A stretch of DNA of 56,332 nt, taken from assembly GCA_964440955.1 (NCBI GenBank), contig CAYTTP010000003.1, positions 1 through 56,332 on the forward strand, given 5' to 3'. A model generated the notes under the pieces. The model had not been told where the DNA came from. It ran no database searches and worked only from the letters and a program-made list of their open reading frames with translations. The translations under genes were made by a program, and so were the position numbers. This document shows positions 674 through 55,061 of the stretch, one piece after another. Source of the stretch: an uncultured Candidatus Saccharibacteria bacterium. Lineage in GTDB: Bacteria > Patescibacteriota > Minisyncoccia > Phycocordibacterales > WO2-35-19. How positions within the stretch are numbered: the first letter of the stretch is position 1; every line of letters starts with the position of its first letter.

Positions 674-850
674 CAAAACAAGGAACAAAATGAGTAGCAT
701 TTTGCGACTATGTTTTTGCGAGAAAAGGAGAGATTTGAAGACCTTTTGAGCTAAAATTAATTTTAAGAAAATTTTAGCCAAAAGGTGTACTGAAACTGTA
801 AGTTTCAAATCCTCTCACTTCCGCAAAACAAGGAACAAAATGAGTAGCAT
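654..850 (+). repeat. tRNA-3'-end-associated structured element, type B (tRNA-Ser copy), with 47-nt flanking direct repeats
   Basis: Segment 654-700 equals 804-850 (tRNA 3' 20 nt plus 27 nt of trailer, including the ATG of the next ORF). In the 103-nt insert, 712-739 is antisense to 804-829. The end GGTGTACTGAAACTGTAAGT resembles the tRNA-Leu(CAA) copy. Confidence 0.75.
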
Positions 851-1398: not shown

Positions 1399-1545
1399 CA
1401 AGCGTGAAGAAAATCTAAACTGCTTTAGATTTTTAGCTTGTGGAAGGCGCAGTGATGTTTTTGTTTGAGCGAAGCGAAAGGCAAAAACCACGAGCCGGGG
1501 TCGCGAGATTTTTCTGTCAAGAAAAATACTTGTGACCACAAGCGT
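1396..1545 (+). repeat. tRNA-3'-end-associated structured element, type A (tRNA-Ala copy)
   Basis: Direct repeat CCACAAGCGT at 1396-1405 and 1536-1545. Contains a CUGC-apex hairpin (AAAATCTAAA-CTGC-TTTAGATTTT), a hairpin with a GAGCGAAGCGAAA loop, and the 3' module GGGGTCGCGAG-hairpin-ACTTGTGACC (1497-1537). Confidence 0.75.
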
Positions 1546-1598
1546 AAGAGTGCAAGCGCTTCATTTTGAATTTGGACAAAATATGTTAGAATAGCGGA

Positions 1599-6514: not shown

Positions 6515-6952
6515 ATGAATCGTCAAAATTTTAAAAAAGTTTTCACTATTGTTTTGGTACTTGCTCTTGTGGCGAGCGTCATCCTACCTCTCTTCACTTC
6601 GGCTCAAACCACTGATGATTCTAATCCACTCGTCCCTTGCGGTGGTCCTGGCCAAAAAGCTTGTGGCTATTACGACTTGTTGCGACTTGTGAACAATCTC
6701 ATTGATTGGGTGATCAAAATATCCATCCCTATTTCGGCCGGCATTTTTGCTTGGGCAGGTATTCAATATATGATGACGGGTGTTATGGACAAAAAAGCTC
6801 AAGCCAAAAAAATGCTAATGAATACCTTTTGGGGTTTTGTTTTTATTCTCTCTGCTTGGATTATAGTGTCGCTTGTGATAAATACCTTGCTCAATCCGGA
6901 GTATCGGGCTGATGTTGATGATACAATAAATCTAACCAAACCAACCAACTAA
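6515..6952 (+). CDS. pilin-like small membrane protein (TrbC/VirB2-like, CPR T4SS-pilin type), long form
   Basis: Signal/TM segment, Cys pair (VPCGGPGQKACGY), then a two-helix hairpin with WAGIQYMMTG...AKKML...FILSAWIIV. Confidence 0.6.
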   Translation: MNRQNFKKVFTIVLVLALVASVILPLFTSAQTTDDSNPLVPCGGPGQKACGYYDLLRLVNNLIDWVIKISIPISAGIFAWAGIQYMMTGVMDKKAQAKKMLMNTFWGFVFILSAWIIVSLVINTLLNPEYRADVDDTINLTKPTN

Positions 6953-6954
6953 CC

Positions 6955-7371
6955 ATGAAAACATTTTTTAAAAAATATTTTTTTGTTTCGCTGATTACTT
7001 GTATTCTATCTTTGTCCTTTTTACCAAGCAGTTTATACTCTCAAGATGGTGGCAATCCTGGTGCTGGGGGTGGTAATCCGGGAGGTGGTTCCTCTTACCC
7101 AATCAAAATAGCAAACCCATTTAAACAAAGCAGTATCACCGACCTTATCACTATAATCATCAAAGAAATATTGATGCCAATAGGGGCAGTGATTGCGGTA
7201 CTTATGATCATGTATGCTGGTTTTATGTATGTTACTGCTCAAGGCAATTCAACTAAAATCACCGAAGCCACTAAAGCTCTCAAATATGCCGTCATCGGCT
7301 CAGCCATCCTTATCGGCGCTTGGACTATTTCCGAAGCTATTAGGGCGACTGTCGGTCAATTAAGGGTATAA
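6955..7371 (+). CDS. pilin-like small membrane protein, long form with Gly-rich spacer
   Basis: Signal peptide, GGNPGAGGGNPGGG spacer, then MYAGFMYVTAQGN...ATKALKYAVIGSAILIGAW, as in the preceding paralog. Confidence 0.6.
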   Translation: MKTFFKKYFFVSLITCILSLSFLPSSLYSQDGGNPGAGGGNPGGGSSYPIKIANPFKQSSITDLITIIIKEILMPIGAVIAVLMIMYAGFMYVTAQGNSTKITEATKALKYAVIGSAILIGAWTISEAIRATVGQLRV

Positions 7372-7387
7372 TTAAAACTCTAACAGG

Positions 7388-7669
7388 ATGAAAAACTTAA
7401 CCGAATTTATAACTTTTTTTACCGATATGGGGCTTAGGCTTGTACCACTATTTGCTGTCCTCGCCTTCATGTATTTTGTGTGGGGAGTAGCACGCTTCAT
7501 CAAAGCGGCGGGCAATGAAAAAGAGGTGGGGGACAGCAAAAAGATACTTATTTGGGGTGTTGTCGGCCTACTCGTGCTTACAAGTATTTGGGGTATTATT
7601 TCCTTTCTCAAAGGTGAGCTAAGATTTGGCGACAATGTTGGTATTCCTCAAATAAAATTTGAAAATTAG
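7388..7669 (+). CDS. pilin-like small membrane protein, short form
   Basis: 93 aa with two hydrophobic helices. Shared motif: YFVWGVARFIKAAGNEKE...LIWGVVGLLVLTSIWGII. Confidence 0.6.
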   Translation: MKNLTEFITFFTDMGLRLVPLFAVLAFMYFVWGVARFIKAAGNEKEVGDSKKILIWGVVGLLVLTSIWGIISFLKGELRFGDNVGIPQIKFEN

Positions 7670-7679
7670 ATGAAATAAA

Positions 7680-7949
7680 ATGAATGATTTTATTGATAAA
7701 GGTTATTCGATTATCACCAATACTCTCATCCCGCTTGGGTACTTTGTTTGCCTCTTTTACTTTGCTTGGGGTATTGCAAAGTACATCAAATCGATCGGTG
7801 ACGGCAAGGAGCAGGGCAGGCAAATAATGATTTGGGGAGTAGTTGGCCTTTTTGTAGTTACGAGTATTTGGGGTATTATTGAATTTATAAAGCTCGAAGT
7901 TGGCTTGCCTTTCGATAATTCAGAGCTCGATGCAAAAGTTTATAGGTAA
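7680..7949 (+). CDS. pilin-like small membrane protein, short form
   Basis: 89 aa. Motif: YFAWGIAKYIKSIGDGKEQGRQIMIWGVVGLFVVTSIWGII. Confidence 0.6.
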   Translation: MNDFIDKGYSIITNTLIPLGYFVCLFYFAWGIAKYIKSIGDGKEQGRQIMIWGVVGLFVVTSIWGIIEFIKLEVGLPFDNSELDAKVYR

Positions 7950-7961
7950 AAATATAAAAAC

Positions 7962-8318
7962 ATGAAAAATAATTTTAAAAAAATAATTCCGGTTTCCCTC
8001 TTCCTTTTACCAATTTTAACAAGCGCTCAACTTGATGGGACAGACAAATTTTTTGGGAAAGCAAAGTCAATCGTAAGTGATACTTTGGTACCAGGAGCAT
8101 TTTTTGTAGCCCTCGTGTATTTCTTCTACGGTATCGCCAAATACATCAAGTCTGAAGGTGCCGGCAAAGCCGAAGGCAAAATGATCATGGTGTGGGGAGT
8201 GGTCGCTTTGTTTGTTGCTTCGTCAGTTTGGGGTTTGGTCACTCTTTTACAAAAGGAAATAGGGATAAACAGTAACCCTGGCAGTATGAAAATACCAACT
8301 TTAGAAACATATAGATAA
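7962..8318 (+). CDS. pilin-like small membrane protein, short form with signal peptide
   Basis: 118 aa. Motif: YFFYGIAKYIKSEGAGKAEGKMIMVWGVVALFVASSVWGLV. Confidence 0.6.
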   Translation: MKNNFKKIIPVSLFLLPILTSAQLDGTDKFFGKAKSIVSDTLVPGAFFVALVYFFYGIAKYIKSEGAGKAEGKMIMVWGVVALFVASSVWGLVTLLQKEIGINSNPGSMKIPTLETYR

Positions 8319-8323
8319 TATTT

Positions 8324-8620
8324 ATGCTTACAAACACCGAAACTTTTTTGAATCAAGCTATTACTCTTTTGACCAATAGAGTCATACCTATTGTCTTTAT
8401 CCTCGCTACGCTCTACTTCTTTTGGGGCATTGTCAAATACATCAAGTCGGAAGGTGCTGGCAAAGCTGAAGGAAAAGCCATTATGGTGTGGGGAGTAGTA
8501 GCCCTTTTTGTGATGACTAGCGTATGGGGCATCGTTCGCTTGTTGAGAGTTGATTTGCTTAGTGGGCAGGACACCAACAGTATCCAAATCCCAACCGCCA
8601 CTTACGGTACTACTCGCTAA
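8324..8620 (+). CDS. pilin-like small membrane protein, short form
   Basis: 98 aa. Motif: YFFWGIVKYIKSEGAGKAEGKAIMVWGVVALFVMTSVWGIV, near-identical core to the previous gene. Confidence 0.6.
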   Translation: MLTNTETFLNQAITLLTNRVIPIVFILATLYFFWGIVKYIKSEGAGKAEGKAIMVWGVVALFVMTSVWGIVRLLRVDLLSGQDTNSIQIPTATYGTTR

Positions 8621-8751
8621 CCACTTCCCACCTACTCCCTACTCCCTCTGTGGATTACTTTTTGCTTGCAAAGGCAAAAAATGGTAAAGTAATGGTAAAT
8701 TAAAAATGTTTATTCATTTTAATTATTATTAAAAAGTATTTGCTAAATTAA

Positions 8752-9096
8752 ATGAAAAAAGTATCTATAGCAGTAGCGATGGCTCTTTTGCCACTTTCAA
8801 CCTTTGCCCAACAGCTCGGCAATATCAGCAACTTAGTTGATAGCGCAAGCGGTATAATCAATAAGGTTATACCTATATTGTTTACACTTGCTTTGCTCGG
8901 CTTCTTTTGGGGCTTGGTCAGATTTCTTTTTGGTGGTGCTGAAGACAAGGATCAGGCAAAAAACATTATGATTTGGGGCGTAGTAGCGCTTGCGGTCATG
9001 GCTTCAGTTTGGGGATTGGTCAACTTCCTTGGTTCGGCATTTAACATCAACAAGGATGCCGCTCCTTCTGTAAACCCTCTTATTCCAAAACCTTAG
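8752..9096 (+). CDS. pilin-like small membrane protein, short form with signal peptide
   Basis: 114 aa. Motif: FFWGLVRFLFGGAEDKDQAKNIMIWGVVALAVMASVWGLV. Confidence 0.6.
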   Translation: MKKVSIAVAMALLPLSTFAQQLGNISNLVDSASGIINKVIPILFTLALLGFFWGLVRFLFGGAEDKDQAKNIMIWGVVALAVMASVWGLVNFLGSAFNINKDAAPSVNPLIPKP

Positions 9097-9114
9097 TTGG
9101 TCTTTGGTCTACAA

Positions 9115-9148
9115 AACAAAAGAGCCGTATTGTACGGCTCTTTTGTTT
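9115..9148. terminator. bidirectional intrinsic terminator-like hairpin
   Basis: AAAGAGCCGTA-TTG-TACGGCTCTTT, flanked by an A-run and a T-run. Confidence 0.75.
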
Positions 9149-9187
9149 TCCCTTGAATTTTATTACCTAACATTTAGAATTAGAAAT

Positions 9188-9220
9188 ATCACCCCTAGCC
9201 CCTCTTACTTTAAGAGGGGA
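9188..9220. repeat. TCACCCC-hairpin intergenic motif, copy 2
   Basis: ATCACCCCTAG followed by the hairpin CCCCTCTTA-CTT-TAAGAGGGG. The arms are the same as in copy 1. Confidence 0.55.
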
Positions 9221-9251
9221 ACAACAACTTAATTTTTAATTTTCAATCCTT

Positions 9252-9515
9252 ATGCCTGTCATCAAAAGCTTGCTCAATCAAATAGCCACACTCTTTTTGA
9301 ACCCGCTCATCATTCTTGGTTTTGTTGTTGCTACACTCTATCTTTTTTGGGGTATTGGGCAAATGATACTAAACGCCGACTCAAGCAAGCTCGACGAACA
9401 TCGGAAGGGAGTTATTTGGGGCGTTGTTGGCTTACTTATCATGTTCTCCGTTTACGGCATTCTCCGTCTTGTTATCCAAACTTTTGAGATCGAGTGTAAT
9501 TTGTATTTTTGTTAG
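9252..9515 (+). CDS. pilin-like small membrane protein, short form (divergent)
   Basis: 87 aa. Motif: LYLFWGIGQMILNADSSKLDEHRKGVIWGVVGLLIMFSVYGIL. Confidence 0.55.
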   Translation: MPVIKSLLNQIATLFLNPLIILGFVVATLYLFWGIGQMILNADSSKLDEHRKGVIWGVVGLLIMFSVYGILRLVIQTFEIECNLYFC

Positions 9516-17849: not shown

Positions 17850-18003
17850 AGTGATTTGTGTTCATATAATACATCAAATTGATTATTTTTAAAGTGTTTT
17901 ATGTATAAATAAAAATCAAGATACAAACTTTCACGGCCGTGAAAAGTTGTATCAAAAGCATATTTCTTTGATATGAGAAGTATGTTATAAATATTCTGAT
18001 CGC

Positions 18004-18076
18004 CCGCCCGTAGCTCAGTTGGTAGAGCAGCTCCCTCTTAAGGAGATGGTCGTAGGTTCGACTCCTACCGGGCGGA
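18004..18076 (+). tRNA. tRNA-Lys(CUU), no CCA encoded
   Basis: Acceptor CCGCCCG/CGGGCGG, D arm GCTC-AGTTGGTA-GAGC, anticodon loop CTCTTAA, T arm GTAGG-TTCGACT-CCTAC, A73. The C1:G72 pair is unusual. Confidence 0.85.
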
Positions 18077-18239
18077 CAATATTGTTTCGCAATATTGTTC
18101 GACCGAGCACGCAAACTGCTTTGCGTGCGTGTAGGAAGTCGAAAGCCGGAGCCATGTTGAGCGAAGCGAAACAGGCGAGGCGGGGTCGCAAGATTTTGCT
18201 AAGCAAAATACTTGTGACCGACTCCTACCGGGCGGACAA
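18059..18239 (+). repeat. tRNA-3'-end-associated structured element, type A (tRNA-Lys copy 1), with 21-nt direct repeats
   Basis: CGACTCCTACCGGGCGGACAA lies at 18059-18079 and 18219-18239. The element carries TGTTCGACCG (antisense to the acceptor 3' strand), a CUGC-apex hairpin, GTAGGAAGTCG (antisense to CGACTCCTAC), a GAGCGAAGCGAA loop, and GGGGTCGCAAG-hairpin-ACTTGTGACC. Confidence 0.78.
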
Positions 18240-18372
18240 GCGTGAAGAAAATCTAAACTGCTTTAGATTTTTAGCTTGTCCGAGACGGAGCCATGTTTTT
18301 GTAGCAACAAAAACAGGCGAGTCAGGATCGTGGAAATTTTTGAGCGACGGCGATAAAATTATCCATGATGAC
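18240..18372 (+). repeat. tRNA-3'-end-associated structured element, type A, second tandem copy (divergent 3' module)
   Basis: It starts with AGCGTGAAGAAAATCTAAACTGCTTTAGATTTTTAGCTTGT, identical to the tRNA-Ala copy. The 3' module GTCAGGATCGTGGA-hairpin-TCCATGATGAC is analogous but diverged. GACAATATTG recurs at 18075 and 18370. Confidence 0.65.
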
Positions 18373-18449
18373 AATATTGCGAAGTGGTGATGATTTACGA
18401 AACTTAATATAAAACGAAGGGCACTCGATGTTCGGGTGCCCTTAGGAAT

Positions 18450-19046
18450 TCATCTGGTCTTGTTCAGCACGTCTTTTATGTCGAAGACGGGGAGCCTATG
18501 CTTTATTCGAAGCCATCTTCTCTGCGTGATCCAACTACCGTCGATCATCACGAATGACTCGTATTTCAATGAGAAGTTGGCTAGCACAAACCCGTCCGAG
18601 TCTTCGATGCCGAGCGCCTCAATAACTGCTCGGGCAATCACGATCGCTTGATCGCAAAACTCTTCGCTGTCAGTGAGATTGAAGGTCAGCGTGAATTTCC
18701 CATCGATCCACGACTTATCCTTTGGTGGGTCGACACGGACTCCGTATTGACGGGCAGCATTGGGGCCATCCGTCAATTTTTTAAAAGCAGATTTGAGACG
18801 TTCGACGATCGCTTCTGTCGCTGTGTCGACGTTGTGGCTCTGCTTTATGTGAAGGACCATCACTCCACGTCTTTGATCTTCTTGGTCAGAGTATGCAGAG
18901 AATGCCGACATCCCGTGCACATCATGTCGTCGATGCTGTGAAAGGCACTTCGACACTTTTCTATCGAAGTCCCCATTCTCGGTAATAGATGTGCGAAGAC
19001 CTATACTGCAATCCCACGTAATAGTAGTCTTATTCCATGTATTCAC
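18450..19046 (-). CDS. hypothetical protein (no recognisable motif)
   Basis: 198-aa ORF in a visibly GC-richer segment. The hairpin AAGGGCAC...GTGCCCTT lies just downstream of its stop. Confidence 0.45.
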   Translation of the reverse strand: MNTWNKTTITWDCSIGLRTSITENGDFDRKVSKCLSQHRRHDVHGMSAFSAYSDQEDQRRGVMVLHIKQSHNVDTATEAIVERLKSAFKKLTDGPNAARQYGVRVDPPKDKSWIDGKFTLTFNLTDSEEFCDQAIVIARAVIEALGIEDSDGFVLANFSLKYESFVMIDGSWITQRRWLRIKHRLPVFDIKDVLNKTR

Positions 19047-26841: not shown

Positions 26842-26864
26842 GGCGTTCACTAAAAGTGAACGTC
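26842..26864 (+). terminator. hairpin after the clpB stop (weak terminator; no T-run)
   Basis: GGCGTTCAC-TAAAA-GTGAACGTC. Confidence 0.4.
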
Positions 26865-26877
26865 GATATAAAGTACT

Positions 26878-26883
26878 TATAAT
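26878..26883 (+). promoter_or_regulatory. possible -10 box for the RT leader RNA
   Basis: A perfect TATAAT. The -35 region is weak (AGTGAA at 17-nt spacing). Confidence 0.35.
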
Positions 26884-26889
26884 TCCCTA

Positions 26890-27135
26890 GAACACCACTT
26901 ATGAGCACGTGAGAGAAAGATGAACGAACATTGGTGGTGTCCTAAGCCCGAAAGTGGCGAGGGTAAGGCCGCTTGAGATCCAAGTCGGACTACCAGCATA
27001 CCCCCAAGATCTTCTGGTTTACTCTAAAGAGAGTATTCCGCTCCATCGTGTGACGATGAAGGCTGTTTTTCGACGTCTCTCACAGGTCCAAGCCGGACTG
27101 TTTTGATTGTAGCATGTTTTTATATATAAGTTTAG
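26890..27135 (+). ncRNA. candidate structured noncoding leader RNA of the RT module
   Basis: About 250 nt with no credible ORF. Stems: ACACCAC/GTGGTGT (26892-26898/26934-26940), GTGAGAGA/TCTCTCAC (26909-26916/27076-27083), CATCGT-GTG-ACGATG (27044-27058). A 13-nt direct repeat lies at 26979 and 27087. Confidence 0.45.
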
Positions 27136-28056
27136 TTGTATAAATCAAATAAAATAGGTTATCCTCTGTTCGGAGGCCTTGTGGATAAACCTGCATTTGA
27201 AAGGTATTTTCTGAGAGATGTAAATCATCAGAGTGGTAGGGTGAAAAATCGAGAAATTTTTGCTCCAAACGATTCAATGCGTGAGGTGCAAGAGGGTATA
27301 GTGGCCAAACTTCGGTCTTTGGAGATTGAGATGCCGAGCGCGACTGGTGGTGTCAGGAATGGTTCGCCAGTCAATAACGTCCTCAAACATTGGTCACCTT
27401 ACAATAAGAGTGCGAGATACTTTTTTCTGCTTGATCTAGCATCTGCTTACAAGAATGTCCTTGTGAGCGATATGTTAGTTGAACTGAAGAGGGTGTGGCC
27501 ACATGATTGCGACGAGAAGTTTGTTCAGAGTGTTATGAATCACTGCTTGATACCGGGTGAGGGTTTGGCAACTGGAGGTAACGCCTCGCCAGATATTTTC
27601 AACCTATGTATGGAGATTTCGATTGATCGGCAAATACGCTCGTATGCCGAATACAACGATCTCACCTACACTCGTTATCTCGATGATCTGACTTTCTCAT
27701 CTCCTTTTCCGATAGGTAAGAGGAAGAGGAATACGATCATCAAGATTCTCACTGAAGCTGGTTGTGTCGTTAACCATCAAAAGTCTCAGGTGCTTGATAT
27801 CGAAAAGCATCATGTGGAAATAAATGGTATCGGCTTGCGTCGTAGCGGACACTTCTTCATGCCTAGTCGGGTCTTGGATGAGTTAAAAAACTTGCTCTAT
27901 CGGGCAACTAGAGGGGAGTCCATTTCCGATTCTCTCATTCAAGGCAAGATGGGCGGGTTCATCTATCTTAGGAGAAAAGGCTTGCTTGCTCTGACCGAGA
28001 GAGAACGTAATATCCTTCGACGGTACGAGCAATATCTGCCGTTGCGCCGGGGTTAA
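27136..28056 (+). CDS. reverse transcriptase, minimal stand-alone type (retron/defence-RT-like)
   Basis: RT motifs: NREIFAPNDSMREVQ, SATGGVRNGSPVNNVLKH, FFLLDLASAY, GLATGGNASPDIFNL, YTRYLDDLTFSS (27676-27687), VNHQKS, EINGIGL. The likely true start is GTG 27181, behind GGAGG at 27172-27176. Confidence 0.88.
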   Translation: MYKSNKIGYPLFGGLVDKPAFERYFLRDVNHQSGRVKNREIFAPNDSMREVQEGIVAKLRSLEIEMPSATGGVRNGSPVNNVLKHWSPYNKSARYFFLLDLASAYKNVLVSDMLVELKRVWPHDCDEKFVQSVMNHCLIPGEGLATGGNASPDIFNLCMEISIDRQIRSYAEYNDLTYTRYLDDLTFSSPFPIGKRKRNTIIKILTEAGCVVNHQKSQVLDIEKHHVEINGIGLRRSGHFFMPSRVLDELKNLLYRATRGESISDSLIQGKMGGFIYLRRKGLLALTERERNILRRYEQYLPLRRG

Positions 28057-28130
28057 ATCCTCGGCGCTCTGTTTTTAATAGTGTGTAAAAATTTTGAAAT
28101 ATCTGGTATTGTGTGCGGAGGAGGTGAACT

Positions 28131-28535
28131 ATGTCCAGTATCTCGAATAGAGAAATGACATTTGTTGTAGCTGTTCTGTACTCTTTGCCCGAAAAGTGGC
28201 GAGGGGTTGGCCGTTCTTTCTCGTTTGAGGATGTGCAAGATAGGCTACATCTTGCTTGGCATAGACTCTATCAAGAAGGATTGCTTGGGGAGTTTGGTGA
28301 ATCGTTTTCTTTTGACGCTCTTTGTGGCTCAGACAGTCTTGGGCAAGCACTTCGCACAGCTGCGGTAGATGGGCTCATAAGGATCGGTGGCTCTGATATG
28401 GCTTATCATGTTGATGTCCTGAAGCCTGACCAAATTGATCGTATGTTAGAGTCGTGCGTAATAGACCGAAGTGCCGTGACTACTGCTGTCAAACGTCTCG
28501 AAGCTATTCTCGAAGAGAAACCCTCCCCGGCTTAG
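28131..28535 (+). CDS. hypothetical 134-aa protein, RT-associated
   Basis: Strong RBS GGAGGAGG 7 nt upstream of the ATG. Same strand as the RT and 74 nt after it. No motif recognised. Confidence 0.6.
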   Translation: MSSISNREMTFVVAVLYSLPEKWRGVGRSFSFEDVQDRLHLAWHRLYQEGLLGEFGESFSFDALCGSDSLGQALRTAAVDGLIRIGGSDMAYHVDVLKPDQIDRMLESCVIDRSAVTTAVKRLEAILEEKPSPA

Positions 28536-28681: not shown

Positions 28682-28872
28682 CAAAATAAAACCCAGCTTC
28701 TGCTGGTGTTTTATTTTGTGCGCCGGAAGTGCAGCTTTGTGTAGCAAAGCGTAGCACGGATTCGAAAGGCGGAAGAAATTTTTTAGCAAAAAAATTTCTG
28801 AGCCGGGGTCGCGAGCGATTTTGCTTGACTGAAGCAAAATCGACTTGTGACCGAATCCTGCCCGGCGCACCA
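28664..28872 (+). repeat. tRNA-3'-end-associated structured element, type A (tRNA-Tyr copy), with 19-nt direct repeats
   Basis: CGAATCCTGCCCGGCGCAC lies at 28664-28682 and 28852-28870; the second copy reads through to ...ACCA. Internal antisense segments are GTGCGCCGG (28718-28726) and GCACGGATTCG (28754-28764). The 3' module GGTCGCGAG-hairpin-CTTGTGACC is at 28807-28852. Confidence 0.8.
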
Positions 28873-29031
28873 CTTCGCTCTGTTATCACAGAGCTTCGCG
28901 GTGCAAGCACAAAAAGATCCCCAGAGATGGTGGTATTTTTGTTATAATTAAGCGAAGTGGTCCCGCGGAGCTAAACCCAGCAAAGCTTTAGCGAAGTTGG
29001 GTAGCGGAGTGGGGCACAAATAAAATTATAT

Positions 29032-36106: not shown

Positions 36107-36203
36107 GGGCCTATAGTTCACCATGTCATTCGCGAATGACGTGGTCAGTGGTAGAATAGCGGTCTCCACCCCGTCGCTCGCGAGCGACAGGGTCCAAAAC
36201 CAA
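36107..36203 (+). pseudogene. tRNA-Trp-like 5' fragment interrupted by two palindromic insertions
   Basis: GGGCCTATAGTTCA..TCAGTGGTAGAATAGCGGTCTCCA..CCAAAACC shares ATAGCGGTCTCCAAAACC with the real tRNA-Trp. Insertions are CCATGTCATTCGCGAATGACGTGG (36121-36144) and CCCCGTCGCTCGCGAGCGACAGGG (36169-36192). No 3' half is present. Confidence 0.55.
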
Positions 36204-36209
36204 TACCAG

Positions 36210-36470
36210 ATGTATTACGTCTATATTCTTAAAAATTTAGAGTCTGACTACTTATACATAGGCTACAGTTGTAATCTCAGAAGGAGAATAGAAGAACATA
36301 AAAGTGGTAAGGTTTATACCACCAAGCGATTAGGTAAAAATATCGAGCTTATTTACTACGAAGCTTATAAGAGCAAAGAGGATGCGCAGGATAGGGAAAA
36401 GAGTTTTAAAAAATCTGGTTCAGTGTATAATGGCCTTATTAAAAGAATAAAGAGAAGTAGGGGTGATTAG
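36210..36470 (+). CDS. GIY-YIG nuclease family protein (short stand-alone type)
   Basis: MYYVYILKNLESDYLYIGYSCNLRRRIEEHKSG...YYE... carries the GIY-YIG motifs. The last 10 nt overlap the tRNA-Trp 5' end. The track ORF from 36123 reads through the pseudo-tRNA and is probably not the real start. Confidence 0.8.
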   Translation: MYYVYILKNLESDYLYIGYSCNLRRRIEEHKSGKVYTTKRLGKNIELIYYEAYKSKEDAQDREKSFKKSGSVYNGLIKRIKRSRGD

Positions 36471-36534
36471 TTAAGTGGCATAATAGCGGTCTCCAAAACC
36501 GCGGTCGTGGGTTCGATTCCCTCATCACCCGCCA
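36461..36534 (+). tRNA. tRNA-Trp(CCA), CCA encoded
   Basis: Acceptor GGGTGAT/ATCACCC, anticodon arm GCGGT-CTCCAAA-ACCGC, T arm GTGGG-TTCGATT-CCCTC, then G73-CCA. Confidence 0.9.
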
Positions 36535-36588
36535 AGTCGGGTAGCGCCCGAGACGCGTTAATGAAATACTTTTTAGGTTTTGCATAGA
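36510..36588 (+). repeat. att-like repeat A (tRNA-Trp 3' end plus trailer)
   Basis: GGTTCGATTCC...CCCGCCAAGTCG-hairpin-AGACGCGTTAATGAAATAC-TTTTTAGGTTTTGCATAGA aligns with 37861-37939. Confidence 0.65.
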
Positions 36589-37256
36589 TGAAGGATACAA
36601 AATATTCGTATCAGAATTTAGTAGGATATATAAGTAGAATAATATTTATATTTGGCGTACCACTTATATTTGTCTATTTTTTTATTTATAAACCACTCAC
36701 TTTAAATAAATGTTTTTCATTTGTTAGTGAGGATGCTCTAAATAACAAGACTGTTGAAATTCAGGTGATCCGTTCTTTGGACCAGGTTGCACAAGAAATT
36801 AAATCATTGGATCCTATTTTACCATTAAATAATGACTGGTTTAAATTTAATGTAACTTTTAGTAATAATTTTAAAGTTGCAATAGTAACATCTAAACCAG
36901 ATTCATACACAGAGGCAACGACAACTTTTTTCTTAGAAACAAAAAACGGAAGCTCTACTATTCCATATGACCAGAAAATAATCATCAATGAAGTAGGGTC
37001 AGAAAATTTAAATAGTCTTATTACAAATCTTGGTTTTATTACAAACAATAAACCTATTTATGTACCTGGCGGCAGTATGATTTCCTTACAAACTAATCCA
37101 AATTTAGGTCAGTTCTGCTCTTTAGTGGAATTAAGTAGAAAATACAAGTTATTAATATACATTGAATCTCTTATAATATTTATTGGTCTGCTTTTAATAA
37201 CCAAAGAAATAATTAGCTTTATAAAACAAGGATTTTCAAATTATTTTAAATTATGA
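36588..37256 (+). CDS. hypothetical membrane protein (very AT-rich)
   Basis: 222 aa with N- and C-terminal hydrophobic helices. No motif recognised. Confidence 0.45.
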   Translation: MKDTKYSYQNLVGYISRIIFIFGVPLIFVYFFIYKPLTLNKCFSFVSEDALNNKTVEIQVIRSLDQVAQEIKSLDPILPLNNDWFKFNVTFSNNFKVAIVTSKPDSYTEATTTFFLETKNGSSTIPYDQKIIINEVGSENLNSLITNLGFITNNKPIYVPGGSMISLQTNPNLGQFCSLVELSRKYKLLIYIESLIIFIGLLLITKEIISFIKQGFSNYFKL

Positions 37257-37283
37257 TAACCTCTGGCCAGAAGGAGGTATGTT

Positions 37284-37763
37284 TTGAACGAACATTGGAC
37301 AGAGATTGAAATTCAAGCTTTGGCCGGAGTCTCAACGTTTGAGGAATTGGCTGAGGTTGCAGTTTGTATTGTTGGACGCATGAGTGCAACTGGAAAGGAG
37401 GTAGTCCAAATCTGTGGGCCAATGAGTACTGGCGGGCTCGGCAACCTAAAGGACAACATGGCCCGTTTTCGTTTGGCCATTGATCGAGCTGCTGAAAATG
37501 GCATCTTGGTCTTCGACCAAATTCCTTTCCAGAACGAGATTATCCGTCTCTGTTCTTTTAAGGAAGGGCAAGACAAATACGATTGGGAGATTCTTGAGGT
37601 TTTCTACAAAAGAATTTTCGAATCAGGTTATGTCCATCGTGCTCTTTTTCTACCAGGTTGGGAGGATTCAGTGGGAGCGAGTTGGGAGCGAGAACTTACA
37701 ACCAAACTTGGCCTCATTGTTGAAGACTACCCAGTCGAGTGGCTTCAGGATTTATGGGTCTGA
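37284..37763 (+). CDS. hypothetical protein
   Basis: 159 aa. TTG start 6 nt after AAGGAGG. GC-richer than the neighbouring ORFs. Confidence 0.5.
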   Translation: MNEHWTEIEIQALAGVSTFEELAEVAVCIVGRMSATGKEVVQICGPMSTGGLGNLKDNMARFRLAIDRAAENGILVFDQIPFQNEIIRLCSFKEGQDKYDWEILEVFYKRIFESGYVHRALFLPGWEDSVGASWERELTTKLGLIVEDYPVEWLQDLWV

Positions 37764-37805
37764 ACAGAAGTTCAGACCCAATTTTGTTACCGCCCGAGAT
37801 GCTTC

Positions 37806-37939
37806 GATTATGCTAGTATAAAAATAATAAGAAAAGCCTTGTGGTGCAATGAACAAAAGAGGTTCGAATCCGAGACGGCCCGCCAAGTCGTGCACAGCAC
37901 GAGATGCATTAATGAAATAGTTTTCTAATTTTGCATAGA
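37806..37939 (+). repeat. att-like repeat B (tRNA-3'-end-like GGTTCGAATCCGAGACGGCCCGCCA with shared flanks)
   Basis: 37861-37939 matches repeat A. 37806-37885 matches 38878-38957 (TGCTAGTATAAAA...CTTGTGG...CCGAGACGGCCCGC). No cloverleaf can be drawn. Confidence 0.6.
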
Positions 37940-37974
37940 CTTACCTTAAATTTATGAGCTGATATAATTTTGGT

Positions 37975-38388
37975 ATGAAAATCATTGATCCCGGCCATAT
38001 CTACGAGCTAAGGCAATTAGGCGATGATAAGACTCAAACTCTGACTTTTATAAAACGTTCTAGTGGTACAATCCAATATGATAAAGAATGGTCAGGACTT
38101 CAAACTCAAGAAGTTTTAAGAGCTTTGATAGATAGGACTTTATATTTAGATAAGGTTTTAGAATGTAAAGAAACAAAAGAAGCAATTAAACATCTCCGAG
38201 CTACCTTATACTGGTATGAAGTGAGAGCTTTGAGGAGAAAAAGATCAAAAACAAATCGAACAACAAACAACCATGATGATTCTGAAACTCCTCCCTATGA
38301 AATGCAATATGCTCCAGATATTCCATTTACTGAAGTTGATATAGAGAAAAAAGAGATTGGAGAGGATGGTCATATAATTCAGTATTAA
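37975..38388 (+). CDS. hypothetical protein
   Basis: 137-aa ORF. No motif recognised. Confidence 0.45.
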   Translation: MKIIDPGHIYELRQLGDDKTQTLTFIKRSSGTIQYDKEWSGLQTQEVLRALIDRTLYLDKVLECKETKEAIKHLRATLYWYEVRALRRKRSKTNRTTNNHDDSETPPYEMQYAPDIPFTEVDIEKKEIGEDGHIIQY

Positions 38389-38390
38389 AT

Positions 38391-38879
38391 ATGAGGAATT
38401 CTACTCTTGTTTTTTTGGTTAAAAGGAATACTAGCAAGAATATTGAAAATATTTGTCTTGCTATGAAAAAGAGAGGCTTTGGGGCTGGGCGATATAACGG
38501 CACAGGTGGAAAGGTAGAAGAAGAAACTATAGAAGAAGCAGCCATTCGGGAAACAAGAGAGGAGATTGGTGTTCAAGTGGAAAATTTAGTTAAAGTTGCA
38601 AAATTAGAATTTAGATTTCCACATAATCCAGCATGGGATCAGATAGTGCATGTATTTTTGTCAGAAATTTGGGATGGAGAACTGACGGAAAGTGAAGAGA
38701 TGAAACCAGAATGGTTTTCGGTTAGTAAGATTCCATACGATACTATGTGGCCAGATGATAAGTTCTGGTTGCCAAAAGTTATTGCTGGAGATCTGATTAA
38801 AGGTAGTTTCGTCTTTGGTGAGAATGATATTGTAGTTCAGCAAGAAGTCGATGTGGTATCTATGTTCAGGGAAGCTTAG
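38391..38879 (+). CDS. NUDIX hydrolase (MutT-like)
   Basis: Nudix box GGKVEEETIEEAAIRETREEIGV. Confidence 0.85.
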   Translation: MRNSTLVFLVKRNTSKNIENICLAMKKRGFGAGRYNGTGGKVEEETIEEAAIRETREEIGVQVENLVKVAKLEFRFPHNPAWDQIVHVFLSEIWDGELTESEEMKPEWFSVSKIPYDTMWPDDKFWLPKVIAGDLIKGSFVFGENDIVVQQEVDVVSMFREA

Positions 38880-38957
38880 ATTGTGCTAGTATAAAATTGA
38901 TTAGAAAAATCTTGTGGGACGACAAACTTAAAATGTTTGAACCCGAGACGGCCCGCA
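38878..38957 (+). repeat. att-like repeat C (partial)
   Basis: TTGTGCTAGTATAAAATTG...TCTTGTGGGACGACAAAC...TTTGAACCCGAGACGGCCCGCA aligns with 37806-37885. Confidence 0.55.
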
Positions 38958-41030: not shown

Positions 41031-41190
41031 CAGATTGAGCAAAGCGAAAGTGGTGTCGGAGAGGCGTAGCTTTTTGTAAAAAAGCGTTACGCGGACTTGA
41101 AACCCGATTGAGATTTTTTAGGAGTATCGCGAACTAAAAAACCAATTGGGGTACTGAGTCTGTAAGACTCAAGTCCTCTCTCCGGCACCA
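41012..41190 (+). repeat. tRNA-3'-end-associated structured element, type B (tRNA-Leu copy), with 20-nt direct repeats
   Basis: TCAAGTCCTCTCTCCGGCAC lies at 41012-41031 and 41169-41188; the second copy ends ...ACCA. TGGTGTCGGAGAGG (41051-41064) is antisense to CCTCTCTCCGGCACCA. GGACTTGA (41093-41100) is antisense to TCAAGTCC. It begins with GAGCAAAGCGAAAG. Confidence 0.78.
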
Positions 41191-41224
41191 GAATTTTGCT
41201 CTTCTGTGTTAGAATATTTTTGTA

Positions 41225-54729: not shown

Positions 54730-55061
54730 TCCGGGATAGCTCAGCGGTAGAGCGAGCGACTGTGTCGTGACGCAGCTTCCAAAAGAAATTTTGGTTGAAA
54801 AACGAGGTGAATTCGGGGGAACCCCAAGTGGGCAATCCCGAGCCAATCCTAAATTAAAGAAAGATATTGTTGTGTAAAAACTTTAATTAAGGCAGGTGTA
54901 GAGACTATTCCGAAAGGAAGTACTTACTCCGTATTTCGGAGTCGGGAAGCGCCTCGCTCCTAATAGCCAATTTGGTTAAAGGAGATGATATAGTCCATAC
55001 TTCTAGTAATAGAAGAGAATATGTAATCGCTTGGTCGTAGGTTCGATCCCTACTCCCGGAG
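54730..55061 (+). tRNA. tRNA-Asn(GUU) interrupted by a group I intron in the anticodon loop; no CCA encoded
   Basis: Exons 54730-54763 and 55024-55061 join to give acceptor TCCGGGA/TCCCGGA (U1:A72, G73 as in tRNA-Asn), anticodon arm AGCGA-CTGTTAA-TCGCT, T arm GTAGG-TTCGATC-CCTAC. Confidence 0.85.
54764..55023 (+). ncRNA. group I intron (IC3-like), 260 nt, no ORF
   Basis: The 5' exon ends in U and the intron ends in G. GCAG (54772-54775) can pair with the exon CUGU as P1. The core strings GAATTCGGGGGAACCCCAAG, GAGCCAA and GGTGTAGAGACTA (54895-54907) match the conserved core of bacterial tRNA group I introns. Confidence 0.85.

Follow-up and report, generated by a model that had tools for sequence, protein, structure and literature searches.

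The window (the whole stretch of DNA that was analysed, 56,332 nt) contains a tRNA-Lys gene followed by two tandem elements of ~140 nt each, Lys1 and Lys2, with an exact repeat of the last 21 tRNA nucleotides between them. Both match R1, a covariance model that was built for this analysis with Lys2 left out of the seed. The features of the locus, all on the + strand, are as follows.

18004..18076 (+): tRNA-Lys(CTT), 3' end at 18076/77 (ARAGORN; Rfam tRNA, 69 bits)
18059-18079 (+): proximal target copy "S" within tRNA-Lys, from C56 through the discriminator plus CAA (exact repeat)
18077..18097 (+): Lys1 spacer hairpin (CAATATTG-TTTCG-CAATATTG), paired in the minimum-energy fold
18096..18105 (+): G1, the first part of the Lys1 antisense arm, complementary to the acceptor 3' strand and ACA
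18107..18128 (+): Lys1 hairpin P2, with conserved loop AAACUGCUUU
18131..18144 (+): Lys1 antisense arm part 2 (G2, GTAGGAAGTCG) plus AAA, complementary to T-loop/T-stem nucleotides 54-65
18145..18181 (+): Lys1 hairpin P4, with a G-N-C/G-N'-C base, a GGA/GA internal loop, and an GAGCGAAGCGAAA tip (R1 alignment)
18184..18219 (+): Lys1 hairpin P5, GGUCGCAAG...ACUUGUGACC (R1, 80.8 bits)
18219..18239 (+): distal copy of tRNA-Lys nucleotides 56-73 plus CAA (exact 21-nt repeat)
18240..18371 (+): element Lys2, 3'-end type (R1, 27.2 bits, E = 5e-6)
18236-18279 (+): Lys2 left stem and hairpin P2'
18274-18281 (+): Lys2 antisense arm, GCTTGTCC
18282-18323 (+): Lys2 hairpin P4'
18325-18371 (+): Lys2 diverged hairpin P5'
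18372..18384 (+): apparent native 3' flank of tRNA-Lys (CAATATTGCGAAG), the same as the post-tRNA sequence at 18077

The repeated segment (CGACTCCTACCGGGCGGACAA, 18059-18079 and 18219-18239) has its left edge precisely at C56 of the T-loop, and its first base is also the final C of Lys1 P5. We read the distal copy as the displaced original 3' end of the tRNA-Lys gene. The tandem arrangement thus stands as first described, and so does the bracketing of the array by GACAATATTG, which is found at only two sites in the whole 56 kb (18075 and 18370). The two elements represent different insertion types, with the Lys1 junction in the T-loop and the Lys2 junction directly after the discriminator base, and the nested layout fits Lys2 having been placed inside a former 26-nt identity block of Lys1. 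A tRNA-Lys gene fused straight to its native flank, i.e., an empty site, would read ...GGGCGGACAATATTGCGAAG.

Two internal pairings of Lys1 had been reported. In one, TGTTCGACCG (18096-18105) and CGGGCGGACA form eight Watson-Crick pairs and one G.T pair over 10 positions; in the other, GTAGGAAGTCG (18131-18141) and CGACTCCTAC pair except for one bulged A. Both belong to the minimum-energy fold (-73.6 kcal/mol, z = -6.7, none of 200 shuffles equally stable), and together they make up a single antisense arm to the tRNA 3' segment, interrupted by a hairpin. A promoter-like site is predicted upstream of tRNA-Lys, and no terminator is predicted from the tRNA to the end of the array, the spacer at 18077..18097 included. 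The elements are therefore probably co-transcribed with tRNA-Lys, which makes a role as RNA just as compatible.

Elements of the same architecture lie behind four other tRNA genes of the window.

1399..1546 (+): behind tRNA-Ala(GGC), 3'-end type (R1, 71.6 bits at 1435-1544)
28683..28872 (+): behind tRNA-Tyr, T-loop type, with a terminator-like spacer (R1, 75.5 bits)
41032..41192 (+): behind tRNA-Leu(CAA), a second family of the same architecture, assigned from sequence (R1, only 9 bits)
675..850 (+): behind tRNA-Ser(CGA), second family, then a 50-nt repeat of the tRNA end

The Ala element carries CCACAAGCGT at both 1394 and 1537. The Tyr element is predicted to fold with -99 kcal/mol (z = -9.9) and has a terminator-like site at 28693-28706. 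In the Leu-CAA element, a GUACUGA-stem-GUA-stem arrangement takes the place of P5, and the tRNA's own 3' 16 nt reappear 139 nt downstream; relatives of this second family were found. The tRNA-Ser repeat (D15) matches 651-700 to 801-850 at 98%.

The start of Lys2 had been described as identical to the tRNA-Ala copy over 41 nt; the exact match is in fact 44 nt (1398-1441 and 18236-18279), within a block of 90% identity over 67 nt. The 2 nt that follow the 44-nt block (CC in Lys2, GG in Ala) complement each tRNA's own end. Beyond the conserved core, elements within a genome otherwise have only blocks of 14-17 nt in common. Lys1 and Lys2 are likewise not two copies of one sequence but diverged members of one family (80.8 vs 27.2 bits), and dating the insertions by aligning them is not meaningful because they are different subtypes. 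Of the repeated, recent insertion proposed in the preliminary description, the stacking of inserts at one tRNA is supported, whereas recency in general is not: only the 44-nt hairpin module looks recently exchanged between the Ala element and Lys2. The elements within one genome are old and diverged, so that their current mobility is only putative.

All six element-bearing tRNA genes of the window are on the G-rich + strand and all four element-free ones on the - strand, a bias toward the strand that serves as lagging-strand template. A wider test of strand bias was significant only in the phylogenetically non-independent IF-2 set and gave p = 0.5-0.8 in pattern-selected loci, and as support for integration the split is suggestive only. 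The element-bearing tRNAs of the window also lack an encoded CCA, which is present in the element-free tRNAs and in some distal copies; across 364 tRNAs there is no such association (18% in both groups).

Members of the family consist of an antisense arm to the T-loop-to-3'-end segment of the tRNA, hairpins P4 and P5, and a sense copy of the tRNA from C56. In the model, P5 reads GGUCGCGAG...CUUGUGACC, with arms GGTCGCGAG / CTTGTGACC and two near-invariant G.U pairs (118/124 and 100/124 rows), which place the fold on the tRNA-sense strand. The P4/P5 core covaries strongly: 94.8% of cells are paired, compared to 70.9% after shuffling, with 696 vs 183 double changes and a value of 0.56 vs at most 0.08 in slid controls. 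The P4 N/N' pair is realised as CG (68), GC (25), AU (17), and UA (6), and the 15 pairs of P5 are 97.4% paired. This covariation of P4 and P5 is independent of the tRNA. Across the six variable pairs of P5, only five of about 710 cells are G.U, all from one pair. The P2 loop AAACUGCUUU has four exact copies in the window (492, 1417, 18113, and 18255), every one inside an element, with varying stems; it is also present at eight other loci (L050, L052, L059, L064, L067, L068, L071, and L106).

The arm follows the tRNA rather than the distal copy. Where the T-loop is TTCAAAT, the arm reads ATTTGAA and is thus antisense to the loop rather than a sense copy, and P2 is element-specific, so that a second degenerate tRNA copy was rejected as an explanation. 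At mutated positions of the distal copy, the arm still pairs with the tRNA version in 60 of 87 cases, compared to 6 of 87. At the level of positions the arm thus holds the tRNA version without compensatory change, and the apparent covariation of P3 therefore reflects common descent from each tRNA and not selection. Better conservation of the arm than of the distal copy did not hold up: unbiased tests gave p = 0.08-1.0, and a value of p = 0.0009 came from a biased set in which cases had been chosen for a differing distal copy. The Tyr and Lys arms complement the gene flank past N73 and not the mature CCA end, which points to pairing at the level of DNA or primary transcript; the Leu-CAA arm extends to complement CCA. 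In many members, G1, G2, and the distal copy mimic an acceptor/T-arm stack, and in many G1 is missing (e.g., L114 and L082). A splicing model with the distal copy as alternative 3' exon was discarded, as distal copies have often decayed to their first 7-10 nt.

Outside the window, the same architecture occurs downstream of more than 100 tRNAs of nearly every isotype and of two tmRNAs (L049 and L071). R1 has more than 150 matches in Patescibacteria and Elusimicrobia (E down to 1e-25), and the hosts include many ultra-small (CPR) bacteria. The junction is either at C56 (T-loop type) or after N73 (3'-end type), and the sequence GTGAC|C(G/A)A... is the same behind different tRNAs and the two tmRNA genes. 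A C56 junction followed by a copy of at least 12 nt is found in 40 of the 79 motif matches that have an upstream tRNA. The repeat is 19-29 nt long with a fixed left and a ragged right edge, and so resembles the identity blocks of integrases and not a fixed target-site duplication. Among 189 CPR tRNAs from 80 unselected loci, 22 have a copy of their own 3' end downstream and none has one upstream.

Occupancy is patchy among orthologous CPR tRNAs; in a distant comparison, one tRNA-Tyr has a plain terminator (L127). Arrays of three to five units with progressively decayed distal tRNA fragments are found at L045 and L112, which have three R1 matches each, as does L005. Some members enclose 1-3 kb of cargo and end in the same P5 and tRNA fragment, among them units of 1.2 kb (L093) and 3.3 kb (L050); the latter, at an Elusimicrobium tRNA-Val, is missing from a related tRNA-Val locus (L060). 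The cargo genes encode Nudix, kinase-like, lipoprotein, and DUF4406 proteins. The earlier view that the array is not a plain trailer is borne out by the shared architecture behind other tRNAs, the decaying arrays, the patchy occupancy, and the presence or absence of cargo units. We saw neither excised or circular forms nor empty sites at the level of strains among contigs of the same species, which end within the repeat or the tRNA, or among the nearest relatives, whose neighbouring proteins are only 60-76% identical. No consistent gene lies downstream of the elements.

The family is previously undescribed, and the tRNA-Lys locus is a stack of two miniature, gene-less members. At the gathering threshold, Rfam 15 recovered the tRNA alone, and at E <= 10 it had no credible match over 17950-18450; in 33 related loci Rfam found tRNA, tmRNA, RNase P, and other unrelated families, none over the elements. 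On visual inspection, the order of the junction is not that of a hammerhead core, and the motifs of box C/D RNAs are absent. Searches of phage, plasmid, and IMG/VR sequences gave no match to the family, and full-text literature searches, including the motif sequences themselves, returned nothing relevant to it.

The 140-190-nt units have no ORF, and neither they nor the cargo units contain an integrase, transposase, or other recombinase. Screening the window genes with Pfam, PADLOC, and NCBIfam likewise identified no recombinase anywhere in the 56 kb, the contig has no TnpA (Y1) or TnpB gene, and ORF clustering over about 120 loci identified no recurrent recombinase neighbour. Upstream of tRNA-Tyr, at a distance of 550 nt, is a gene for a retron-type reverse transcriptase, which has no homologue in the other 200 loci. 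Small GIY-YIG nucleases are encoded directly upstream of tRNA genes in these genomes.

We give an even chance to the reading that the elements are integrase-less integrative units that target tRNA genes, with the 21-nt repeat as the displaced original tRNA end. tRNA and tmRNA genes are the classical targets of integrative elements, which we count in its favour, as we do the recurring junction, the variable repeat length, the decaying arrays, the cargo-bearing versions, the patchy occupancy, the covariation of the core, and the match of the arm to the tRNA version. The failure to find a recombinase, an excised form, or an empty site, the divergence of elements within one genome, and their probable co-transcription with the tRNA count against it. 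Each unit would bring a replacement T-loop-to-3'-end segment (S), a spacer hairpin, the antisense arm (A), P4, and P5, and strand exchange would be site-specific, at C56 of the T-loop (Lys1 type) or just past the discriminator (Lys2 and Ala type). This would leave an intact tRNA followed by the unit and shift the original tRNA end downstream; a regenerated tRNA could be struck again, giving rise to arrays, and larger versions would bear cargo genes in the manner of cassettes. The active form may be the folded tRNA-sense strand, as RNA or as single-stranded DNA (cf. integron attC and the CTX phage attachment site), in which A and S would rebuild a duplex copy of the target stacked on P5, with the crossover point at the foot of P5. 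The three-way junction would then be recognised by a trans-acting enzyme encoded elsewhere.

A bolder proposal is put forward tentatively and is on balance unlikely: the elements would be mobile elements of a new class, targeted by a folded nucleic acid. The arm would read the tRNA or tmRNA gene by base pairing and dock it against P5, and a small structure-specific enzyme would join the element at C56; candidates are a host Xer-type recombinase or the GIY-YIG nucleases upstream of tRNA genes. Since the T-loop is nearly universal, an arm of 7 nt would be enough to reach any tRNA, and it could be lengthened later by templated copying. With cargo, this would amount to an integron-like gene-cassette system of CPR bacteria and Elusimicrobia that is anchored on tRNA genes.

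Several known systems share parts of this architecture. Tyrosine-integrase islands and prophages also target the 3' part of tRNA and tmRNA genes, restore the gene, and leave the displaced 3' fragment at the far end. As in the elements, the identity block of tRNA-integrated islands extends to the 3' end from either the T-loop or the acceptor end, and accretion is in tandem. The T-loop and 3'-end sublocations of integration were reportedly distinguished by Williams in 2002. Unlike such islands, of which Islander is a catalogue (PMC4383910), the units are only 140-190 nt long and without integrase, which the cargo-bearing versions lack as well, and have a conserved structured core with strand-specific G.U pairs. 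They also carry the target in antisense, a feature that classical attP sites lack and that counts against the integrative reading.

Integron attC and the CTX phage site are, like the elements, short imperfect palindromes that fold on one strand; in these sites the crossover lies at the foot of a hairpin and the folded strand mimics a duplex target, as both would here. Integron cassettes are similarly arrayed, with promoter-less cargo genes between recombination sites and the enzyme encoded outside the cassette. In contrast to attC, the elements have no RYYYAAC ... GTTRRRY (R''/R') boxes in their P5 arms, their arrays begin at a tRNA gene, which is the target, and they fold into a three-way junction that includes a target-specific arm; neither an integron integrase nor attI was found in the window or the neighbouring ORF clusters. 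CIMEs and other att-flanked derivatives without recombinase share the flanking attachment-site repeats, the lack of recombination genes, and tandem build-up at one site. CIMEs measure kilobases and derive by deletion from a parent element that can be recognised, whereas we found no parent of the elements, whose conserved part is a folded core. Classical MITEs have terminal inverted repeats common to all copies and a short, fixed target-site duplication; in the elements, arm A and copy S form an inverted repeat that changes from tRNA to tRNA, and the repeat is of variable length.

That the elements are instead cellular structured non-coding RNAs from the 3' trailer of the tRNA transcript is unlikely, though a serious alternative. 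The arm would pair with the tRNA's own 3' half or the downstream copy, in control of tRNA maturation or as part of a tRNA-like minihelix that RNase P and RNase Z would process; a host factor would bind P4 and P5, and arrays would come from local duplication. Such an RNA would fit the strong covariation, the G.U pairs conserved on the tRNA-sense strand, the high stability of the RNA folds (z = -6.7 and -9.9), the promoter-like site with no predicted terminator until the array end, the mimicry of the acceptor/T-arm stack in many members, and the fact that very small genomes have kept the elements at 12% or more of their tRNAs. Yet many members have a terminator-like hairpin between tRNA and core, many lack G1 and thus the acceptor mimic, and the distal copy decays with no compensatory change in the arm. 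A housekeeping RNA would not be expected to come in cargo units or decaying arrays or to show indels between related species, a selected RNA helix would usually contain more G.U pairs than does the variable part of P5, and no consistent gene lies downstream.

Non-autonomous relatives of IS200/IS605-type single-strand DNA transposons, or a TnpB-style scaffold-plus-guide RNA, would have P5 as right end, the arm as an internal guide that chooses the target, and the tRNA segment after P5 as the flanking "guide". This is improbable. IS200/IS605 ends, palindrome-associated elements, and TnpB guide RNAs do share strand-specific hairpins directly at the junction, target choice by internal base pairing, and a scaffold followed by about 20 nt of target, and the strand bias of the window and enriched GCGAAGC mini-hairpins point the same way. 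However, these transposons have conserved left ends and 4-5-nt targets and duplicate no target, whereas here P5 is the conserved right-end hairpin, the left end is tRNA-specific, a tRNA segment of 19-29 nt is repeated, and the tRNA is regenerated by the element-borne copy; the lack of TnpA and TnpB genes in the window also argues against them, and the strand bias is not clearly borne out by the wider test. Still less probable is a retro-element whose arm is a primer-binding site for the tRNA 3' end and whose reverse-transcribed cDNA recombines into the tRNA gene. The arm is antisense to exactly the 3'-terminal part (roughly 20 nt) of a specific tRNA that LTR elements use as primer, the Leu-CAA arm reaches CCA, and a reverse transcriptase gene lies near tRNA-Tyr. 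Against this, the arm mostly complements the gene flank and not CCA, LTRs are absent, and the reverse transcriptase has no homologue at the other loci and classifies with retrons, which prime from their own RNA; group II introns were not found in Patescibacteria in a survey (PMC13011429). A static spacer, with chance repeats or remnants of an old local tRNA duplication and neither function nor mobility, is hardly credible. It would account for the divergence of elements within a genome and for the failure of our searches to find a mobilising enzyme, but it is contradicted by the more than 150 family matches with a core conserved in sequence and structure across phyla, the covariation, and the copies that lie only downstream, as well as by the identical junction position behind different tRNAs and the identical 44-nt block at two loci 17 kb apart.

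Few mobile elements are recognised in the tiny genomes of CPR bacteria, and the units lie behind roughly one eighth of their tRNA genes and more than half of those in the window. If mobile, they would constitute an overlooked route of gene flow, with Nudix, kinase-like, and lipoprotein genes among the cargo, and a cause of assembly breaks and mis-called ORFs. If targeting is indeed by base pairing next to a hairpin, this would be a compact, potentially reprogrammable insertion system. The three-way junction, a structured element that lacks annotation, has covariation support on a par with that of curated RNA families and so deserves a family model.

There are 15 copies of the mini-hairpin GCGAAGC; the broader motif GC[AG]AAGC occurs 17 times vs 2.5 expected, and the reverse complement three times. 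d(GCGAAGC) forms an unusually stable DNA hairpin, and as support for integrative units this enrichment is suggestive only.

The tRNA-Lys gene of the window is followed by two tandem elements, Lys1 (proximal) and Lys2 (distal), arranged as follows:

18004-18076, + strand: tRNA-Lys(CTT), called by ARAGORN and Rfam
18059-18079 and 18219-18239: exact 21-nt repeat, running from T-loop C56 to the discriminator base plus CAA
18236-18279: block of 44 nt in Lys2, exactly identical to 1398-1441 at the tRNA-Ala locus
18075 and 18370: the only two occurrences of GACAATATTG in the window

These coordinates bear out the preliminary description, which had reported a repeated tRNA end, an identity between Lys2 and the tRNA-Ala copy, and bracketing of the array by GACAATATTG. 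The two internal pairings that it had proposed for Lys1 are both present in the minimum-energy fold of the region, which is much stabler than shuffled sequences (z = -6.7). Its interpretation as repeated, recent insertion is partly supported: insertion is upheld by units behind tmRNA genes, arrays, cargo, and patchy occupancy, and recency applies to the 44-nt module only.

Read from the sequence, the same layout recurs 3' of tRNA-Ala, Tyr, Leu-CAA, and Ser in the window. The tRNA is followed by a spacer hairpin (terminator-like in many units), an antisense arm complementary to the T-loop-to-3'-end segment of the tRNA, hairpin P4, hairpin P5 (arms GGUCGCGAG...ACUUGUGACC), and, directly 3' of P5, a repeat of the tRNA in sense orientation that starts at C56, which we call the distal copy. 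In some units the antisense arm is split by hairpin P2 with the loop AACUGCUU. Lys1 is of this T-loop type; Lys2 and the Ala element represent a second, 3'-end subtype, in which the junction directly follows the discriminator base and the repeat is limited to a few bases.

The sequence ACAATATTG, which follows the element-borne tRNA segment of Lys1, is the same as GACAATATTGCGAAG after Lys2, apparently the native tRNA-Lys flank. In the simplest history, Lys1 was in place first, with a 26-nt identity block, and Lys2 then inserted into the displaced fragment, behind its discriminator base; the opposite order of insertion is possible. The 44-nt hairpin module is identical in Lys2 and the Ala element, and the 2 nt that follow it are CC in Lys2 and GG in Ala, each complementary to its own tRNA end, so the module looks recently exchanged and the arm is target-specific. 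Beyond this module, elements within the genome have just the conserved core in common, and the label "recent" does not fit the whole family. The structured sequence also gives rise to a spurious 123-aa open reading frame (18019-18390), which runs through the tRNA and both elements and might be annotated as a gene in error.

A search with the two P5 arms, taking one genome per species, returned more than 118 loci, a lower bound; nearly all of those listed are from Saccharibacteria, Paceibacteria, other Patescibacteria, or Elusimicrobia. Among the 120 motif matches listed, 79 have a same-strand tRNA end within 260 nt upstream, covering nearly every isotype, and 40 of these 79 carry at least 12 nt of that tRNA's 3' end directly after P5. 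A covariance model of the element core (R1), built from 12 seed sequences, scored Lys1, Tyr, and Ala at 80.8, 75.5, and 71.6 bits and recovered Lys2, which was outside the seed, at 27.2 bits (E = 5e-6). R1 has 124 matches in the window and 99 comparison loci, 29 more in 28 further loci, and 17 in 569 kb of unselected sequence from ultra-small bacteria (CPR). The family is a real and widespread set of structured, tDNA-anchored units. Rfam 15 holds no family matching the elements, phage and plasmid collections gave no match, IMG/VR gave three, and literature searches found no description of the family, which apparently has none. A second family has another terminal hairpin (GUACUGA-stem-GUA-stem) and includes the Leu-CAA and Ser elements of the window.

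In the 124-sequence alignment, whose fitting to R1 somewhat inflates these figures, 94.8% of cells pair (70.9% when shuffled), double-sided changes number 696 (183 when shuffled), and the covariation score is 0.56, compared with at most 0.08 with slid partners. The variety of pair types at individual positions of P4 and P5 is unambiguous despite this inflation. Covariation in P3, the pairing of the arm with the distal copy, is inherited from the tRNAs and does not reflect selection. Among 87 positions at which the distal copy has changed, the arm retains pairing with the tRNA version at 60 and pairs with the distal version at 6. A first test suggesting that the arm is better conserved than the distal copy was selection-biased, and unbiased versions were not significant.

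Insertion is indicated by several features outside the Lys locus. Elements also lie 3' of tmRNA genes (comparison loci L049 and L071), and arrays of three to five units have progressively decayed downstream tRNA fragments (L045, L112). Some units carry cargo between the spacer and P4/P5: 1.2 kb with a Nudix gene and a P-loop kinase-like gene in L093, and 3.3 kb with a kinase-like gene and two lipoprotein genes in L050, where the related L060 has 29 nt only. Among 189 tRNAs in an unbiased sample of 80 loci, with an IF-2 gene as the sole criterion of choice, 22 are followed within 450 nt by a near-exact repeat of their own 3' 16 nt, and no tRNA has such a repeat upstream; many of these copies belong to the second family. 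Orthologous tRNA-Cys, tRNA-Leu, and tRNA-Lys genes in this sample are occupied in some genomes and unoccupied in others.

The Islander paper (PMC4383910) describes elements in tRNA and tmRNA genes that regenerate the gene and displace a fragment, and the present units show the same regenerated gene and displaced fragment. Integrase genes are absent from the units, their cargo, and the 56-kb contig, and no recurrent recombinase was found among the neighbours of the elements. We give about even chances to the units being integrase-less integrative elements. Such a unit would be mobilised in trans, with the three-way junction as the recognised substrate; pairing of the arm with the tRNA segment would rebuild a duplex copy of the target, stacked on P5, and crossover would occur at the P5 foot. 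The main rival, a cellular RNA role, seems rather improbable to us.

The folded molecule may be RNA or single-stranded DNA. Two near-invariant G.U pairs in P5 (118 and 100 of 124 rows; 117 and 99 of 123 distinct rows) would be C.A mismatches on the opposite strand, placing the fold on the tRNA-sense strand. Their conservation speaks for RNA, as does the tRNA-Lys locus, which has no predicted terminator before the array end. Other features speak for single-stranded DNA: the arm is complementary to the gene flank and not to a CCA end, terminator-like spacers are common, the variable part of P5 is almost free of G.U pairs, and GCGAAGC mini-hairpins are enriched in a strand-specific manner. A further point for DNA is that the + strand, G-rich throughout 1-56332 by GC skew, has all six tRNAs that bear an element or a cassette (Ser, Ala, Lys, Tyr, Trp, and Leu-CAA), and the four on the - strand (Glu, Leu-TAG, Leu-TAA, and Cys) have none; beyond the window this bias was significant solely in the phylogenetically non-independent IF-2 set (p = 0.5-0.8 for pattern-selected loci). 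An association of elements with a missing CCA was true of the window only.

Downstream of tRNA-Trp (36461-38956) lie two tandem gene cassettes of 1.3 and 1.0 kb, with these open reading frames:

36588-37256: open reading frame
37284-37763: DUF4406
37975-38388: open reading frame
38391-38879: NUDIX

Each cassette starts with the hairpin motif CCAAGTCG-stem-CGAGA, also found 3' of tRNA-Glu in L093, and ends with a 3' fragment of a different tRNA (GGTTCGAATCCGAGACGGCCCGCCA).

Further arrangements lie at the 5' sides of tRNAs. Duplications flank tRNA-Ser(CGA) on both sides (464-605 and 651-850). The upstream one (464-492 equals 577-605) comprises 29 nt, 10 nt of flank plus the first 19 nt of the tRNA, and encloses an 85-nt structured insert with an element-type AAACUGCUUU hairpin; the downstream one repeats 50 nt of the 3' end. 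Across about 1.5 Mb of loci, all eight small GIY-YIG nuclease reading frames end -6 to +54 nt from a same-strand tRNA start:

36123-36470: GIY-YIG nuclease in the window
L015, L018, L057, L112, L177: one each in these comparison loci
L145: two

Four of the eight have a displaced copy of the tRNA 5' 18 nt immediately ahead of the reading frame, some 300-350 nt upstream; L015 makes a fifth, with the copy at -31, within the reading frame or beyond its end. The fragment in L112 extends to the anticodon loop. The arrangement mirrors that of the 3' elements, and the nuclease is a candidate for an enzyme that cuts tDNA. A family of 220-aa proteins (L003, L028, L048, L098, L197, and others) has an N-terminal helix-turn-helix as its only Pfam match. 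Of its ten occurrences, four are 32-69 nt upstream of a same-strand tRNA gene, and a fifth, in L003, is at a distance of 286 nt.

Just upstream of tRNA-Tyr, the region 26860-28535 encodes a retron-type reverse transcriptase (27136-28056; RVT_1 E = 1e-14, PADLOC RT_II-A E = 2e-23), which has no homologue in the other loci. A 270-nt non-coding stretch ahead of the gene may be its msr/msd RNA, and a 134-aa reading frame without a family match follows the gene. After the displaced tRNA-Tyr fragment, a further structured stretch (28873-29010), bracketed by CCACTTCGC...GCGAAGTGG and ending near GGGGCACAAATAAAA, which is similar to the tRNA-Tyr end and flank, may be a unit of a different family. A group I intron (54754-55016, 78 bits) lies between genes, in a gap around which no tRNA was called. 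Group I introns are reported to interrupt tRNA-Asn and tRNA-Asp of Patescibacteria (PMC13011429), and this one may lie within a tRNA gene missed by ARAGORN; in L015, another group I intron is immediately preceded by an R1 element. Four independent assemblies of the same species from other samples (among L122-L125 and L208) end inside the Lys2/Ala 44-nt module and one more ends inside tRNA-Lys; short-read assemblies are broken by repeats at these loci. Paralogy among small T4SS/TrbC-like pilin genes that lie in a run at 6515-9515 accounts for the window's largest families of direct repeats.
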